Source: Thermoproteota archaeon
GTDB taxonomy: Archaea; Korarchaeota; Korarchaeia; B14-G2
Assembly (NCBI GenBank): GCA_037917675.1
Contig: JAVCBW010000051.1
Span: forward strand, 30,142 to 94,141
Reading direction: 5' to 3'
Length of the DNA stretch: 64,000 nucleotides
Positions 48,741 to 53,828 of this stretch are shown piece by piece. The notes beneath the pieces were generated by a model. The model made no database searches and was not told the origin of the DNA. It was given only the letters and a program-made list of their open reading frames with translations. The first letter of the stretch is position 1. Every line of letters begins with the position of its first letter. Position numbers and translations under genes: made by a program.

Positions 48741-49904
48741 CTAGAGCCAGCTTGGCTTGAAGCCCAGCTTCTCCTGGACCTCAAACACCCTCGGAAGCCT
48801 CTCCCTAGCCTCCCTAAGCTTCCTCTCATGCTCCTCTAGGAACCTCACCAGCCTCTCTGCAATCCTCTGCTTGCACTCTCCGCAGAGGACTGAGCCACTT
48901 GTGCAGTCATCAAATGTCTTCTTCAAGATGCTGTCTTCGAAGTGGAAGAGCAGGAACATGTATGGCACACAGATGTCAGGCTGCCCTCCCTTCTCCCTCT
49001 GCTCCCTAGCTGTAGCCCTCCCTCCCGTGAAGGCTTCCATGAGCTTCCTCCTAGCCTCATCAGGGCTATCGCCTAGGAAAATCGCTGTTTCAGGCTTGCT
49101 GCTCGACATCTTCGTCCCAGGCCCCTGGAGCCCAGCCATCATCTTCACGTATATCGATGAGGGCTTCACCATGCTGAACTTAGGCGCCAGGTCATGGCAT
49201 AGCCTGATATACGGGTCCTGATCTATCCCAACTGGGACAAGCACAGGCTTAGGCCCACCCATCTCCTCGCTCTGAGGATACATTATGTCAGCTGCATCGA
49301 TAAACGGGAAGAACACTTTACCTATGGTGTCAGACTCCCCCTCCTCACCTCTATACCTGAAGCCAAACATGGAGCCGAGGTGGCTTGCAGTTATCTTAGC
49401 TGCGAACATTATCGCTAAGTTCTTGACAGTCTCATTAGACCACTGGCTGTATATCATCACCCTCCTCCTATCAGTGAGGTCTATTCCGAGAGCCATGTAG
49501 TTCAGTATGTACTCCTCGACAGCATACCTCTCTATGTCACCTAAGCTAAGCCCTCTGATGACGTAGGCCTCTATGTCTGATATCGGAATGATGACCTTAA
49601 CTCCACGCCTATAGTACCATGCCATCAAGTCAGCTACCAGCTTGTGTCCAAAGTGGAACCTCCCTGAGGGCATCATACCAGTCAGGATCACATACTCCTC
49701 CCCTCTCTCCTCAGCCTCAAGTATCCTCTCAAACCCCCTGTGAGCGAATATCAGCCCTCTCTCAAAGAGCCTGTTCCTCTCTCTCATCCTCTCAATGAGC
49801 TCTCTAGTCATCTCCTGAACTCCGAACTGCCTTATGACCTCTCTGTAGTCCCTGTACTCCAGCTTAAACTCCCAAGGCGATATCGCTACACCACCCTCTG
49901 CCAG
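48741..49904 (-). CDS. trpS: Tryptophanyl-tRNA synthetase; true N-terminus lies upstream of ATG 49811 and has no ATG/GTG/TTG in frame
   Basis: TG.MPSG.FHFGH, VPVGIDQDP, KMSSS, AFTGGR, CGECK. Upstream in-frame ISPWE...DY..VI.QFG is the usual archaeal TrpRS N-terminus. Only CTG 49904 is available in frame. Confidence 0.95.
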   Translation of the reverse strand: MAEGGVAISPWEFKLEYRDYREVIRQFGVQEMTRELIERMRERNRLFERGLIFAHRGFERILEAEERGEEYVILTGMMPSGRFHFGHKLVADLMAWYYRRGVKVIIPISDIEAYVIRGLSLGDIERYAVEEYILNYMALGIDLTDRRRVMIYSQWSNETVKNLAIMFAAKITASHLGSMFGFRYRGEEGESDTIGKVFFPFIDAADIMYPQSEEMGGPKPVLVPVGIDQDPYIRLCHDLAPKFSMVKPSSIYVKMMAGLQGPGTKMSSSKPETAIFLGDSPDEARRKLMEAFTGGRATAREQREKGGQPDICVPYMFLLFHFEDSILKKTFDDCTSGSVLCGECKQRIAERLVRFLEEHERKLREARERLPRVFEVQEKLGFKPSWL

Positions 49905-49917
49905 CCCAACAGACCAC
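49864..49917 (-). promoter_or_regulatory. Putative leader ORF MVCWAGRGWCSDIALGV* (two Trp codons); trpS is in its +1 frame
   Basis: GTG 49917 lies about 24 nt below TATA 49941-49947, the leaderless spacing seen at moaD. Confidence 0.45.
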
Positions 49918-50056
49918 CTCTAACCGCCCTAGCCATGGAGATATAAACGTTCCGCTACCACGAGCTGCTGACACCTACAGCTCCAGTGAGAACCGTTCCC
50001 GAACCCTAGGCTGCAGCTTGCTCTCAGCAGCATCGCATGCACTTGAGATAAAGCTA

Positions 50057-50550: not shown

Positions 50551-51669
50551 TCAGGGAGCCCATGCTAGCAGGTGCATATTCCCTATGTGAACGTTCTCCA
50601 AGCGCTTTTTCGCTACGTTATAGCACTCCTCAACCTGCCTTCTCGGCGTTATCGGCAGGTCTCTCATGTAGTAGTCTGGGTGGAAGACGAGCAGGCTATA
50701 GGGTATTTCTGGGCTCAGGCTTGCTATGAACTCTGCTATGTCAGCTACCTCCTCTGCGTCTACGTAAAATGGGACTAGCAGCGTTGTTGCAGTGAGGACT
50801 GGTAGACCTCTTCTGTCCTCATAGTACTTTCTGTATATCATCTCAAAGTTCTCATATGCTCTCCTGTTAGAGACACCACTTAACGCAAGCGACATGGCGG
50901 AGGTGTAGGCTTTCAGGTCGAACTTTACGTTCCCTCCACTCACATAGGATAGCTCAGCTGCCTTGTCAACTAGGCTTGAGTTGCCGCATCCATTCCACTC
51001 CCAGCATATCCTGACAACTCTGTCTTCACATTCCTCTAAGACCCGCTTAGACGCTTCTAGCGCAAATGGGAGGTGTGGCTCTGGGCTGCCTCCGAAGTAG
51101 CATATGCATGTTATCCTCCTGTCTTGCTTAACTGTAGCTATGAAGTCCTCCACCGTTATCCTCTTACCTTCACTAGTATACTTGTGGGAGGAGTTCTGAC
51201 AGAAGAGGCAGTTGAAGTTACAGCCATAGAAGAATACTGCCAGGTTGTAGTAGCCTGACTCGACTCCAGGCTTCACAGCATACTTAGGGTAGCCTGCTCC
51301 TGTGCCAGCTGGGCAGAACCATGCTGCACAGCAGTTTGTAGGGTGAGGATCCCTATAGACATATGCTACACCCACCTTAGGAGATGTAAGCTGGACAAGC
51401 TTCCCTCCTTCATTCCACCTCAGCCCACAGAACCCCATGTCTCCATCTCCCATCCTACACTCGTTGCTGCAGAGAGTACAGGTCAGCCCCCCTTCAGCTC
51501 TAGGAGGATGAGGTGGAAGCCCATATCTCTCTCTAACCTTAGCGTGAGCTTCCATTATGTAGGGCATGGCTTCATCTGGCTTCTCTCTTATACAGCTGCT
51601 ACACACCCTAAGTGTAGAAGATATGTCAGCTCCAGCTCTACCACAGACTCTACAAGACACCTCAGGCAA
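50551..51669 (-). CDS. Radical SAM protein (AmmeMemoRadiSam/PflA-related)
   Basis: C..CSNEC....G..GFCG.R, DPHPTNCC..WFCP, GCNFNCLFCQN, FGGSPEP, EWNG, KFDLKA, FHPDY. Confidence 0.88.
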   Translation of the reverse strand: MPEVSCRVCGRAGADISSTLRVCSSCIREKPDEAMPYIMEAHAKVRERYGLPPHPPRAEGGLTCTLCSNECRMGDGDMGFCGLRWNEGGKLVQLTSPKVGVAYVYRDPHPTNCCAAWFCPAGTGAGYPKYAVKPGVESGYYNLAVFFYGCNFNCLFCQNSSHKYTSEGKRITVEDFIATVKQDRRITCICYFGGSPEPHLPFALEASKRVLEECEDRVVRICWEWNGCGNSSLVDKAAELSYVSGGNVKFDLKAYTSAMSLALSGVSNRRAYENFEMIYRKYYEDRRGLPVLTATTLLVPFYVDAEEVADIAEFIASLSPEIPYSLLVFHPDYYMRDLPITPRRQVEECYNVAKKRLENVHIGNMHLLAWAP

Positions 51670-51994
51670 GCTACCACTAGGCTACAGCTACACCATAATG
51701 TTAAAATGTTTGCTGTTGTGCTCAACTGCAGCTTCTCTCCAGTAGCTTATTCAAGCTGGATCCCACAGCTAGGCTCCAGCCACACACCTGCCCTCTGGAG
51801 TAAAGAGCTCAGCTAGCTCTGCTTTTACCCAGAAGGCTGCTTTCACGGCTCCAATCCTACATCCTGTGTGTCCTCTCAGAGCTGGCTGAGCTCCCTCCTA
51901 GGAGCTAGAAGCTCCTAGTCTAATACTCACCTAGAGCTACATAGGCCTGTTAGGCTGCTGATGGCAACCTCAATGTTGCGCGCATGGAGCAAGT

Positions 51995-52032
51995 TGCATG
52001 TTTCACGACTGTTTCATGCACTAAGTTTATTA
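51995..52032 (+). promoter_or_regulatory. Inverted repeat TGCATG-N14-CATGCA with internal TGTTTCA direct repeat, directly upstream of a TATA-like box
   Basis: Seen at 51995-52020; TATA-like GTTTATTA at 52025-52032. Confidence 0.4.
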
Positions 52033-52052
52033 CCTGCCTTCTAAGAGGGCCT

Positions 52053-52103
52053 ATGCCTCTAGTGGAGGAGGTGAGTATGGGGGATCTAGTTTGGGTCTCC
52101 TAG
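52053..52103 (+). promoter_or_regulatory. Leader [19 protein letters not shown] (Trp codon); ParB/SerK-like gene is in its +1 frame
   Basis: ATG 52053 (leaderless position) or ATG 52077 (GGAGGAGGTGA SD); ...GGG GAT CTA GTT TGG GTC TCC TAG. Confidence 0.65.
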
Positions 52104-52548
52104 AAGGCCTCTAAAAGCCCTTTACTTCCTGTCTTCTGGCCTGTTTAAGGCGGCTGCTGCCATCGTTCCAGCGTCCATGTTGAAGCCCCATGAAATGACC
52201 ATCGAAAAGTGCCTCAAGAACATCAAGTCTCAGATTAGAGACGACGGCAGGCTCTACATGCCAGTCATCGTCGACAGGAGGTCCATGACGATACTAGACG
52301 GCCACCACAGGTATGCTGCCTTAACCCAGCTTGGAGCAAAGCTAGTCCCAGCTCTCCTAGTAGACTACAGGTGTCCTGAGCTGGAAGTGTACCCCAGGAG
52401 GGTAGGTGTGCCTGTAAGCAAGAGGATTGTACTAGAGTACAGTAGGAGAGGCCTCCTGCTTCCACCTAAGACGACACGCCACGTACTTCCAGTTGAGCCA
52501 CGTGAGGTATCAGTTCCTCTAAGAGACCTCATGAGGTGTAAGCTATGA
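52090..52548 (+). CDS. ParB/Srx-fold protein related to SerK/SbnI L-serine kinases (short form)
   Basis: [29 protein letters not shown]...[15 protein letters not shown]. Frame opens at 52090; first ATG is 52177, two codons before LKPHE. Confidence 0.75.
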
Positions 52549-53828
52549 TGCGTGTGACCCTAGATGTAGATGAGCTACCAAGAGCCTGGTATAACATCCA
52601 AGCTGAAGTCGATATCCCTCCTATGGTCACGCCTGATGGCAGAGAGGTTAAGGCAAGTGAGCTCGAAGTCATCTTTCCAAAGGAGTGTGTCAGACAGGAG
52701 TTCTCAAAGAGGCGGTACATACAGATTCCAGAGGAAGTCAGAGAGATGTACATCAGGATCGGCAGACCTACACCACTTTACAGGGCAGTTAGACTTGAGA
52801 GGAAGCTGAAGACGCCTGCTATAATCCTCTATAAGAGAGAGGATTTGAGCCCAACTGGAAGCCACAAGCTCAATACAGCTATACCACAAGCCTACTATGC
52901 TAGAGAGGAGGGTGTTGAAAAGCTGACAACTGAGACTGGAGCAGGCCAATGGGGATCAGCCTTAAGCTATGCTGGCGCCATGGCTGGAGTAGGAGTTCTA
53001 GTCTTCATGGTCAGAGTATCATACATGCAGAAGCCATATAGGAAGTATGTGATGATGCTATATGGAGCTGACGTAGTACCATCACCAAGCAGCCTAACTG
53101 ACGTAGGGAGAAGCCTCTTGAAACAGGACCCCAACCACACTGGTTCGCTTGGGATAGCTATAAGCGAGGCCATAGAGATGGCTGTGAAGAATGAGAAGGT
53201 GAAGTACTCGCTTGGCAGCGTGCTGAACCACGTGCTGCTACACCAGACAGTTATAGGCTTAGAGGTGCTAGAGCAGCTCAGGAAGCTAGACCTGAAGCCA
53301 GATGTGATGATAGGCTGTGTTGGAGGTGGAAGCAACTTTGCAGGCTTCTGCTATCCCACAGTAGGCAAAGTGCTCAGAGGGGAAATCAGTGATGTGAGGT
53401 TCATTGCAGTAGAGCCTACAGCATGTCCATCACTAACCCAGGGAGAATATAGGTACGACCACGGTGACACAGCTAAGATGACCCCTCTACTAAAGATGTA
53501 TACACTAGGATGCGACTTCGTCCCTCCACCAATACATGCTGGAGGCTTAAGATATCATGGTGCAGCTCCATCAGTATCACTGCTAAAGAGCAGAGGGGTA
53601 GTAGAGTCAGTAGCCTACCCACAGGATGAAGTGTTCAAGGCTGCAAAGCTATTCGCTGAGACAGAAGGCCTGATATCAGCTCCTGAGACAGCTCATGCTG
53701 TCAAGGCGGCAATAGATGAGGCTATCAAGGCAAAAGATGCAGGAGAGGAGAGGGTCATAGTATTCAACTTCTCTGGCCATGGCCTACTAGACCTAGAAGG
53801 ATACAAGGAGGTCCTAAACCTACCATAG
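52545..53828 (+). CDS. trpB: Tryptophan synthase beta chain, TrpB2 type
   Basis: [78 protein letters not shown]. Confidence 0.95.

Follow-up and report, generated by a model that had tools for sequence, protein, structure and literature searches.

Based on comparative sequence analysis we found that the trpB2 operon of a Thermoproteota archaeon of the Korarchaeia is preceded by a short leader with a single Trp codon, that this leader is conserved in the class, and that the reading frame following it is always the +1 frame of the leader. The arrangement probably represents a prfB-like programmed +1 frameshift that is set off by a hungry Trp codon. Judging from the letters of the genomes, it is also fairly likely that a class-wide hungry-codon switch, consisting of GGNG, NUU_U and a single UGG in a leader of 7-12 codons, controls tryptophan salvage together with tRNA charging, and a reasonable case can be made that the shifted ribosome either makes the enzyme as a trans-frame fusion or translates a spacer up to the next start codon.

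Anatomy of the leader

The window is the whole stretch of 64,000 nucleotides that was analysed (contig JAVCBW010000051.1, positions 30,142 to 94,141), and its features around the leader are collected in Table 1.

Table 1. Features of the leader, the +1 reading frame and trpB2, in positions of the window.
Feature	Position	Strand	Remarks
TATA-like box TTTATTAC	52026..52033	+	51 nt 5' of leader start; presumed promoter of leader-serK-trpB2 transcript
Shine-Dalgarno (SD) GGAGGAGGTGA for leader ATG	52064..52074	+	pairs with own 16S rRNA 3' end
Leader MGDLVWVS*, ATG GGG GAT CTA GTT TGG GTC TCC TAG	52077..52103	+	nine codons
Internal SD-like GGGGA	52080..52084	+	4 bases 5' of slippery codon; template GGNGN-N4-NTT-TGG
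Candidate shift site GTT TGG G	52089..52095	+	NTT-TGG kept in all true leaders
+1 ORF, 152 codons	52090..52548	+	about 11 linker codons, then mini-SerK
N-terminal beta-hairpin of SerK fold	52123..52176	+	encoded 5' of sole canonical start
ATG, gene-caller start (P0002, 123 aa)	52177..52179	+	no SD; not conserved
SD GAGGTG of trpB2	52533..52538	+	within end of +1 ORF; 6 nt before ATG 52545
trpB2 (TrpB-like PLP enzyme)	52545..53828	+	full-length profile matches

Every letter of the leader, its SD and their positions were confirmed as given in the original prediction. Those points of the prediction that could be addressed in silico were all borne out. The genome's own 16S rRNA has the 3' end ...GGATCACCTCC, which is complementary to the SD GGAGGAGGTGA; as had been predicted, this strong SD serves the leader, and ATG 52177 is without a GGAGG-like motif in the preceding 22 bases. 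The sole Trp codon of the leader is TGG 52092-52094. At 26 of 28 leader loci a TATA-like box is located 45-53 nt 5' of the leader start (L052 has it at -38, and L027 has none within that 45-53 nt range), and the box at 52026 may act as the promoter. The internal SD-like element was predicted to pair with the 16S tail at -9 to -17 kcal/mol (nine variants folded), in a register unlike that of prfB, and GGGGA might function as a stimulator of the shift.

The downstream frame was confirmed to be blocked by an in-frame TAG (52087-52089) and to open at TTT 52090, from where it runs for 152 codons to TGA 52546-52548. Because of this TAG a +1 entry before 52090 is excluded; the deduction that entry must occur within GTT TGG GTC TCC or at the leader stop was logically right, and the comparison of genomes narrows it to NUU_UGG. 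Two public DNA runs, which belong to two studies and one of which may be the window's own source, gave contigs that span 51900-52700 with 0 differences and 0 gaps, indicating that no assembly slip is involved.

No known RNA family was found in the window with Rfam at the gathering threshold, and no tRNA with ARAGORN. No RNA run containing 51700-53300 was found. Folding of 52050-52180 gave no significant RNA structure (z = 0.15), and since the MFE folds of 21 leader-spacer regions of genus g2 also share no hairpin, an attenuator hairpin was dropped as unsupported. Only 13 of the 21 g2 spacers contain the pyrimidine-rich YYCC(N)TG box for which pairing with the leader AUGGGGG is conceivable. Read-through of TAG 52087 was rejected because an in-frame TGA is found at 52072 and no start separates the two stops; only three g4 loci have an ATG in this frame ahead of the TAG. 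The UUG in GTTTGG was likewise rejected as an internal start, as it is in the +2 frame, which carries stops. In the whole genome ARAGORN gave 24 tRNAs, or 32 with introns permitted; it found no tRNA-Trp or tRNA-Val, in a search that is uninformative for intron-rich archaeal tRNAs, and the call of a 4-base anticodon, as would be required of a quadruplet-decoding tRNA, disappeared with introns permitted.

The gene in the +1 frame and trpB2

The ParB/SerK-like identity that had been assigned to the downstream gene was supported by a PDB profile search and a structure comparison, which agree. The profile search matched the +1 ORF to SerK (5x0b, 5e-30) in two stretches, 16-118 and 201-241 of 242. 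The AF2 model of the product (pLDDT 93.2) aligned with 1vk1 in VIA with a Z of 18.9 and an rmsd of 1.8 A over 130 residues, model residues 12-148 corresponding to chain residues 14-242. The SerK profile NF053625 scored 76.7 bits, below its cut-off of 380, with matches only at positions 21-98 and in a C-terminal segment. The catalytic motifs DGHHR and PPKTTRH are intact in the +1 ORF product, and D70, G71, H72, H73 and R74 as well as P126, K127, T128, T129, R130 and H131 are invariant among 24 sequences. The product, mini-SerK, would be a ParB/Srx-like free serine kinase type without the middle domain, for which kinase activity is predicted.

The start at ATG 52177 is the first ATG, GTG or TTG of the downstream frame, and a TATA-like TTTAAG (52144-49) is located 33 nt 5' of it. 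The original prediction held that starting there would remove the N-terminal strand; the structural alignment, which begins 18 codons upstream, agrees with this. In the AF2 model the strands of the hairpin comprise residues 9-16 and 19-27 (pLDDT 90-97), the Pfam, SbnI and PDB profile matches all begin upstream of M30, and residues 12-29 belong, according to the model, to the SerK fold. In L185, the closest relative, GCA is found in place of ATG 52177, TTTGAG in place of TTTAAG and TTG in place of CTG 52141, and CTG 52129 is conserved. With both ATG 52177 and CTG 52141 changed, the two closest genomes have no canonical start in common.

The stretch upstream of ATG 52177 evolves as coding sequence in the +1 frame. 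Between the window and L185 the ratio of synonymous to non-synonymous changes in this extension was 9:8 in the +1 frame, as compared to 3:14 and 3:13 in the other frames, with 29:28 in the core of the mini-SerK gene; in the g5 pair it was 5:2, compared to 1:5 and 2:4. LYFLSSG (52120-52140) is identical in L185, with three synonymous changes. No protein-level constraint was detected in the linkers of g4 and g6 (1:11, 3:9, 1:21, 2:9), so that their openness is a matter of length and absence of stops only. The annotated starts of the relatives' serK-like genes vary (121, 130, 135 and 145 aa), and on our reading gene callers mis-start or shorten these serK-like and TrpRS genes.

The trpB2 gene scored above the cut-offs of both NF009057 (673.2 bits, cut-off 366) and TIGR01415 (649.2 bits, cut-off 518.85). 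Its start is joined to the stop TGA of the +1 ORF by an ATGA overlap (52545-52548), as had been noted before. As trpA and trpC were not found in the genome, TrpB2 looks like a stand-alone salvage enzyme. TrpB2 enzymes use O-phosphoserine. The pairing of a putative mini serine kinase with a stand-alone TrpB2 points to a candidate indole-salvage route.

Conservation of the leader and of the frame

In 35 class genomes trpB2 was seen, and in 34 of them the leader, with small variations, is present 5' of the trpB2 operon, a tally that covers related, not independent genomes and takes in variants more than one mismatch from the core. A search for the 15-base core in 40 class genomes gave 38 places, made up of 31 true leaders (in 30 genomes) and 7 coincidental ones, and the reversed-pattern control gave 5 matches in the 40 genomes. 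The core occurs once in the window's own 1.78-Mb genome, which together with the 31 true leaders against 5 control matches is beyond chance; no further leader was found in that genome even with any T-starting A-site codon permitted. Among the secondary motif matches in the class genomes, three proved to be TFB coding sequence (GDLVC) and the other four were judged coincidences.

The original prediction depended on the presence of the leader in relatives, and it is kept in L185, in the class genomes counted above and in one record from another lineage (L102). Among 80 trpB2 loci of other lineages, 75 were without the leader, including those of Hadarchaeota, Thermodiscus, methanogens, Thorarchaeota and bacteria, and three more matches were judged chance. 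Four chance matches in metagenomes led into +1 ORFs of 7-22 codons only; several of the metagenome matches probably represent organisms already counted.

The leaders of the relatives read MGDLVW followed by 1-3 codons and a stop, with an SD of the GGAGGTG or GGGGGTG type upstream. The stop follows 0-5 codons after the Trp codon in all cases, and there is one Trp codon per leader, L052 alone having two. NTT-TGG is present in every true leader examined, N being G, C, T or A: the P-site residue varies (V/L/F/I) while TT-T is constant, and the A-site codon is TGG at all loci. GGNG is invariant, with the second codon keeping its first G though the residue changes (D, G, V), and GGNGN is always 4 nt from NTT. 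Related leaders were found 5' of TrpRS genes at 22 of 30 loci. The targets, TrpB2, its likely substrate supplier and TrpRS, are all tryptophan-related.

The claim that the downstream frame is the leader's +1 frame holds in three gene contexts, i.e. serK-like fusions, TrpRS and trpB2 spacers. From the shift site the +1 frame is always open, and it either enters mini-SerK or TrpRS or is closed by a TGA that overlaps the start of trpB2. Where leader, serK-like gene and trpB2 occur together, it runs into the ParB/SerK domain in 12/12 class genomes, as it does from a degenerate leader copy in G019. TrpRS is in the +1 frame at 18 loci (17/30 plus L052), at eight distinct distances that are all 1 mod 3, and at four further TrpRS loci (g6) the +1 ORF extends only slightly beyond the start of TrpRS. 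For the TrpRS gene of the window itself a -1 version of the switch is possible.

At 21/21 loci of genus g2 the leader TAG is followed by an open +1 frame that extends to the TGA overlapping the trpB2 start (31-49 codons). Over the 738 codons of these spacers 72 stops were counted in frame 0 (21 of them the leaders' own), 42 in +2 and none in +1. The peptides are not conserved in sequence, and the spacers come in eight distinct lengths, each divisible by 3. A rough relatedness-aware estimate gave at least 344 substitutions, of which 12.9 were expected to create a +1 stop and 0 were seen (P ~2e-6); at a single locus the chance of an open spacer, as determined by shuffling, is not small (0.12-0.44). 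The spacer argument concerns net lengths only, as pairwise alignments show many compensating 1-nt gaps, with no clear difference from an upstream control.

No canonical start is common to all g4 genomes. The leaderless loci (L011, L013, L014, L016-18) have an ordinary ATG or GTG 11-16 residues before the HE motif, and candidate independent starts were also observed behind leaders: counted in residues ahead of the motif, an ATG at 12 in g5, a TTG at 18 in both g6 loci and a GTG at 8 in 3/5 g4 loci. The trpB2 and TrpRS genes of g2 each have their own strong SD and ATG, indicating that their basal expression does not depend on a frameshift. GGTGA-type leaders have a +1-frame GTG a few bases past the leader ATG, and where no stop intervenes (L010, many TrpRS loci) this GTG could start the main frame without a slip.

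Proposed mechanism, alternatives and known systems

We propose that the transcript would start about 25 nt past the TATA-like box at 52026, and that the strong SD would recruit ribosomes, which would then translate the leader MGDLV-W-VS*. When charged tRNA-Trp is plentiful, UGG (52092-94) would be decoded and termination would follow two codons on. When it is scarce, the ribosome would pause, its A site vacant and GUU occupying the P site, and the peptidyl-tRNA could re-pair one base forward, from GUU to UUU, perhaps helped by the SD-like GGGGA 4 bases upstream; the first-position mismatch that this re-pairing leaves counts against the slip. Gly-tRNA would then read GGG as the new A-site codon and translation would continue in the +1 frame. 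In the window this would yield a trans-frame product starting M-G-D-L-V-G-S-P-R, with (M)GDLVGSPR as its predicted tryptic junction peptide, in which the mini serine kinase has its full N-terminal hairpin, and the ribosome, having stopped at the TGA within ATGA, would be handed to trpB2; mini-SerK and TrpB2 would jointly convert serine and indole to tryptophan. In one large genus the leader would feed a +1 spacer ORF that is free in sequence and ends on the trpB2 start, and in several genera a sister leader would feed TrpRS.

One reading in which the leader acts without a frameshift we regard as unlikely but deserving of consideration. The leader could be a genuine Trp-responsive uORF at which stalling at UGG, or termination, alters transcription read-through, mRNA stability or start access, and the kinase-like protein would start by itself at ATG 52177, possibly on a leaderless internal transcript from TTTAAG, or at a near-cognate CTG (52129 or 52141). 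The conservation of the leader and its Trp-related targets would suit any leader mechanism; ATG 52177 does exist, with TTTAAG 33 nt upstream, CTG 52129 is conserved in L185, candidate starts occur in g5, g6 and part of g4, and the g2 trpB2 and TrpRS genes have an SD and ATG of their own. However, this reading does not explain why the downstream frame is always the leader's +1 frame, why 21/21 non-conserved spacers are stop-free in precisely this frame and terminate on the start of trpB2, why spacer lengths come in multiples of 3, or why NTT-T is kept despite amino-acid change. Moreover, ATG 52177 and TTTAAG are both absent in L185 (GCA, TTTGAG), a start at M30 would, according to the model, cost 18 residues of the SerK fold, synonymous changes have preserved the residues encoded 5' of CTG 52129, and no terminator-like or significant structure was found in 52050-52180. 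An artefact, with one gene split by an indel from sequencing or assembly, or with a pseudogene in decay behind a chance uORF, would agree with the origin of the window from a metagenome-assembled genome and with a 123-aa call that looks truncated relative to the SerK fold, yet we give it practically no weight: two assemblies are identical letter for letter, the arrangement recurs in dozens of genomes, and DGHHR and PPKTTRH are intact.

Among readings that keep the +1 frame, the shift could take place at the leader stop, as in the slow termination of prfB, or with UGG in the P site, and would then sense release-factor activity or nothing in particular instead of tryptophan. Any +1 event within 52090-52103 enters the same frame, so that frames alone cannot separate the sites, and the leader stop always lies 0-5 codons past the Trp codon. 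However, the last codon and the stop vary freely (CTC TGA, CCT TAA, CTT TAA, TCC TAG, among others), TGG is followed by the stop at variable distances while NTT-TGG is invariant, UCC_U in the window gives no re-pairing, and the target genes all concern tryptophan, making this site very improbable. For part of the loci it has also to be considered that one SD serves both the leader ATG and a +1 GTG 4-7 bases downstream in GGTGA, i.e. competing initiation without a slip. A GTG of this kind is present in GGTGA-type leaders, with the frame open in L010 and in most g2 TrpRS loci. Competing initiation cannot apply to the window, to any GGGGATCTAG-type leader or to L012 and L015, in which a TAG follows in +1; these make up the large majority of trpB2 loci. 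As the Trp codon and NTT-T would also have no function in it, we hold it to be scarcely credible.

No published description of this leader or sensor was found in a literature search of the articles available. According to a comprehensive 2016 recoding review, frameshifting at hungry codons could give starvation-specific trans-frame proteins, of which 'no examples are known' (PMC5009743). If the frameshift is true, the leader would be such an example, with a conserved, dedicated and simple site. In a 2021 review of archaeal recoding, programmed frameshifting is represented by a single -1 case (PMC8211752). If true, programmed frameshifting would here form the basis of the first natural amino-acid sensor of this kind, and Archaea would gain their first amino-acid control of the leader-peptide type. 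The site, 18 bases in length, might then be put to use in thermophile engineering as a small translational switch that responds to an amino acid.

In prfB a short ORF0 (from a few to a few dozen codons), an SD-like element, a P-site xUU followed by U and a slow A-site codon that starts with UG and signals how much of its own decoding factor is available lead to a product in the +1 frame. The leader resembles this in its short ORF0, the nearby upstream SD-like sequence as a candidate stimulator, the P-site xUU_U, the presumably slow UG- A-site codon and the +1 frame of the product, and in the window the downstream ORF is without an adequate start of its own, while candidate starts occur in some lineages. 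In contrast to the stop UGA of prfB, a sense codon, UGG, is found in the A site, so that the sensed quantity would be charged tRNA-Trp, and the element would work like prfB without being a member of the prfB family. The systems further differ in that the SD-like element of the leader is predicted to pair with another part of the 16S tail at 4-nt spacing, that the leader system is archaeal, that its +1 product would be the sensed factor only where TrpRS is the target, and that in one genus the +1 ORF would only be a conduit to the start of the next gene.

In trpL attenuation and in the T-boxes of trpS and trp genes, low charged tRNA-Trp raises Trp biosynthesis and TrpRS. The leader would share this logic and has these targets, being a short leader with a Trp codon before tryptophan genes, whereas it has a single Trp codon, no terminator or antiterminator was found here and it would act by changing the reading frame in place of transcription read-through. 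Hairpins may be dispensable for termination in Archaea, and to our knowledge neither trpL attenuation nor T-box control has a counterpart in Archaea.

The yeast elements Ty1, ABP140 and EST3 also combine slippage at a P-site xUU_x with an A-site sense codon that is decoded slowly; the +1 site CUU_AGG_C and the term 'hungry codon' are given in the 2016 review (PMC5009743). They are eukaryotic, and their slowness is constitutive (rare tRNA) and does not sense an amino acid. Antizyme, described in that review as sensing a metabolite level through a +1 shift (PMC5009743), is similar to the proposed action of the leader in that the efficiency of the shift at a slow A-site codon acts as the level sensor, but it is eukaryotic and responds to polyamines at a stop codon, where the leader would use a Trp codon. 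The +1 product itself is similar to SerK (T. kodakarensis TK0378; PDB 5x0b, 1vk1), which makes O-phosphoserine (PMC5120207), and to SbnI, in fold (Z 17.5-18.9) and in the motifs DGHHR and KTTRH, but it has about 150 residues in comparison to the 242 of SerK and lacks the middle domain (~119-200).

The leader and its downstream frame in the window

On rereading the sequence, the letters of the short Trp-codon leader, its Shine-Dalgarno (SD) sequence and the TAG in the +1 frame (one base forward of the leader) were all found where the original prediction had placed them. As the TAG excludes entry before 52090 and the leader stop sets the other limit, any +1 entry from the leader is confined to 52090-52103, in agreement with the earlier proposal. 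The stretch 51900-52700 is identical (0 differences) in contigs from two public DNA runs of two studies, one of which is possibly the source sample of the window. The approximately 350 nt (51670-52025) that separate the TATA-like box of the leader from the divergent radical-SAM gene (50551-51669, minus strand) lack long ORFs and Rfam matches, and are rich in CTAG/AGCT palindromes (e.g. 51880-51940).

Features of the leader and the +1 frame in the window
Feature	Position	Strand	Basis
Shine-Dalgarno GGAGGAGGTGA	52064-52074	+	sequence reading
Leader ATG GGG GAT CTA GTT TGG GTC TCC TAG	52077-52103	+	sequence reading
TAG in +1 frame, within leader	52087-52089	+	sequence reading
+1 ORF, 152 codons	opens at TTT 52090; closing TGA within ATGA of trpB2 start (52545-52548)	+	

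The sole ATG, GTG or TTG of the +1 frame ahead of the conserved LKPHE motif is ATG 52177, which was confirmed to have no SD. The product of the frame is short and ParB/sulfiredoxin-like. When 24 relatives were combined into a profile, it hit the free serine kinase SerK (5x0b, 5e-30) twice, over residues 16-118 and again over 201-241 of 242, indicating a SerK without its middle domain; all 24 sequences carry the motifs DGHHR and PPKTTRH unchanged. In the AlphaFold model of the 152-residue frame (pLDDT 93.2, pTM 0.87), residues 9-16 and 19-27 form strands, and the part from model residue 12 on aligns with SerK structures (for 1vk1, chain residues 14-242, with an rmsd of 1.8 A across 130 residues and Z 18.9). 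M30, encoded by ATG 52177, thus lies 18 residues inside the modelled fold, and a start there would cut off the strand ahead of LKPHE, as originally argued. Database gene calls for the family (P0002-P0006 and relatives) have inconsistent starts (121, 123, 130, 135 or 145 aa, some at the PHE motif), which is an annotation symptom of a missing canonical start.

The downstream gene was identified as TrpB2 by profile search (673 bits vs a cut-off of 366). Since neither trpA (PF00290) nor trpC (PF00218) was found in the genome (G000, 92.7% complete), TrpB2 seems to stand alone in indole salvage, apparently with no second enzyme that forms tryptophan; we take the mini-SerK to be its likely phosphoserine supplier.

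The locus of the closest relative, P0003 (L185; 76% protein identity), aligns with the window gap-free from the SD to trpB2, and keeps the leader (MGDLVWLS-stop) and the same 152-codon +1 frame. ATG 52177 is GCA in L185, CTG 52141 is TTG, and the candidate internal promoter TTTAAG is TTTGAG. Between 52090 and 52176, differences fall 5, 6 and 12 times on the three codon positions. The ratio of synonymous to non-synonymous changes is 9:8 in the +1 frame, 3:14 and 3:13 in the other frames and 29:28 in the gene core; LYFLSSG (52120-52140) is the same despite three synonymous changes. A pair from genus g5 is similar (5:2 vs 1:5 and 2:4 in the other frames), whereas pairs from g4 and g6 differ (1:11, 3:9, 1:21 and 2:9). 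Judged from these comparisons, the early linker in g4 and g6 is open, of fixed length and sequence-free, as in the g2 spacers.

Conservation of the leader and its frame link to trpB2

A search with the 15-base leader core (at most one mismatch) in 40 genomes of the class gave 38 places, compared to 5 with the reversed pattern as control. On reading, 7 of these proved coincidental and 31 genuine leaders, spread over 30 genomes; in the window's own genome the template was found once. Three coincidences (L056-L058, in G034, G029 and G010) lie in TFB coding sequence, where the core has T or C for its final G within the zinc-ribbon region (ETGDLVCQDCG); a Cys-sensing leader there was rejected as a coincidence of peptide and codon choice. 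Further variants, differing by synonymous or conservative changes, came from loci located via the protein (ATG GGT GAC CTA GTT TGG; GGT GAC CGT CTT TGG; GGT GAC CAT CTT TGG; GGT GGT TTA CTT TGG). The expected conservation in relatives was borne out, with a leader before the trpB2 operon in 34 of the 35 class genomes where trpB2 was seen; the exception, from family f3, has a serK-like gene with an ordinary ATG start. No trpB2 was found in 4 further class genomes, and one of the 40 was left out of this tally. The counted genomes are related and several metagenome matches are probably organisms already counted, L178 and L185 alone adding new lineages.

The common anatomy is an SD, a start codon, GGN-GNN-NNN-NTT-TGG, 1-3 further codons and a stop. 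Of 28 loci, 26 have a TATA-like box 45-53 nt upstream of the leader start; in L052 the box is found at -38, and L027 has none in that interval. We are confident that the leader is genuine, conserved and regulatory. One contig (C42 of G035) carries a second perfect copy (L055), which lies 6 kb away from the first and likewise has a TATA-like box and an SD; the contig stops 15 bases past this copy, so that any target gene would lie beyond its end.

In all 21 genomes of genus g2 the leader lies 99-156 nt upstream of a trpB2 that has its own SD and start. The distances take eight different values, each a multiple of three, and the +1 frame is open in all 21 from the leader-internal TAG to a TGA overlapping the trpB2 start (aTGA or ATGCTGA). 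Over 738 spacer codons, frame 0 holds 72 stops (21 being the leaders' own), +1 none and +2 42. The +1 spacer peptides are dissimilar and have no common start codon. By shuffling, an open spacer at a single locus is not rare (0.12-0.44). On a minimum spanning tree of the 21 spacers (at least 344 substitutions; 3.8% of possible point changes make a +1 stop), 12.9 +1 stops were expected and 0 seen, with P ~2e-6 as a rough estimate. A pyrimidine-rich box (TCCCATGAT, TCTCCCTG) occurs approximately +32 to +47 past the leader core in 13 of the 21 spacers (among them L031, L032, L035, L041, L048, L050, L051 and L061); it could pair with the leader's AUGGGGG or mimic the anti-SD, is not universal, and was not significant in folds of the 21 spacers.

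In the 12 class genomes with leader, serK-like gene and trpB2 (g1, g3, g4, g5, g6), the +1 frame enters the ParB/SerK domain. In G019 (L188/L100), where the leader (MGDHLWPP-stop) lies 433 nt upstream of trpB2, the +1 ORF of 135 codons is open up to the trpB2 SD and its ParB motifs have decayed (NKHHR, no PPKTTRH), which suggests that translating the frame counts for more than its product. As a control, four metagenome sequences that match the 18-base leader by chance had +1 ORFs of just 7-22 codons. Outside the class, the leader was absent at 75 of 80 trpB2 loci. A Candidatus Baldrarchaeum yapensis record (L102) has MGDSIWV-stop (ATT TGG) approximately 360 nt upstream of trpB2 and a +1 ORF of 119 codons with its TGA over the trpB2 start; the product resembles a small regulator of the helix-turn-helix type rather than a serine kinase, and the arrangement thus points to the same switch with a different passenger.

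Leaders ahead of TrpRS

Among 30 TrpRS loci of the class, 17 have TrpRS in the +1 frame of a sister leader with NTT-TGG, and L052 brings these to 18. The peptides, each followed by a stop, include MTGDLLWP, MQGGSLWR, MPGDFLWL, MPSGDVFW and MGDRLWRRENC, and the leader-TrpRS distances take eight distinct values, each 1 mod 3. At 4 g6 loci the +1 ORF extends slightly beyond the TrpRS start, ending 19-25 nt ahead of the conserved PW codon. Eight of the 30 have no such leader, with none at the g4, g1 and g7 loci, and one was not placed in any category. Sister leaders were recorded at L072-L091, L052 and L066-L069.

For the window's own TrpRS gene (minus strand, within 48741-49935), the gene call begins at ATG 49811. 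Upstream of it, similarity to relatives (ISPWEFKLEYRDYREVIRQFG) extends as far as 49919; there the frame is closed by a TAG, and no in-frame ATG, GTG or TTG lies between 49811 and 49919. A mini-ORF with one Trp codon, TTG GGC TGG CAG AGG GTG GTG TAG (49909-49886, minus strand), has an SD-like AGGTGG four bases upstream, and TrpRS is -1 relative to it (G_GGC_UGG). The mini-ORF may represent the switch in a -1 hungry-codon form, or TrpRS may have a non-canonical start; the upstream stretch is kept in the same-genus genome G001.

Proposed shift site, alternative explanation and known systems

All leaders have GGNG and NTT-TGG, with a constant four bases between GGNGN and NTT-TGG. The residue at the P site differs (Val, Leu, Phe, Ile) with TT-T constant, and the second residue differs (Asp, Gly, Val) with its first G constant; synonymous variation is found (CTA/TTA, GGG/GGT, GAT/GAC), and the codons past TGG and the leader stop vary freely. 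These constant letters are what would be needed for a P-site slip from NUU to UUU with UGG in a vacant A site. GGNG would act as an SD-like stimulator pairing with the 16S tail, which fits its invariance; the tail ends in GGATCACCTCC, and duplexes with the leader element are predicted at -9 to -17 kcal/mol.

Based on these sequence patterns, the reading of the leader with the best support, and probably the correct one, is a programmed +1 frameshift sensitive to Trp. The main alternative is that the leader acts without a slip and the serK-like gene initiates independently. Plausible independent starts exist in several lineages, and in g2 both trpB2 and TrpRS come with an SD and an ATG of their own; in GGTGA-type leaders, a +1-frame GTG with no stop after it could also serve as the start of the main frame. 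The case for the frameshift centres on the frame link, and we regard the slip-free alternative as unlikely. Against the frameshift is the one mismatch left by GUU to UUU re-pairing. Folding of the leader region and the g2 spacers gave no significant RNA structure, and no RNA run was found to cover the locus.

Literature searches, with supplements and non-open papers outside their reach, returned no published description of such a leader switch. According to a 2016 review, hungry-codon frameshifting that gives starvation-specific trans-frame proteins has no known examples (PMC5009743), and a 2021 archaeal review names one -1 frameshifting case in Archaea (PMC8211752). The leader element would work like the hungry-codon shifts of yeast Ty1, as covered in the former review (PMC5009743). 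It follows the logic of trpL attenuation and T-box control. The prfB frameshift has a stop codon in the A site as its defining feature. The leader element would work alike but lacks this stop codon, and is thus a variant rather than a member of the prfB type.
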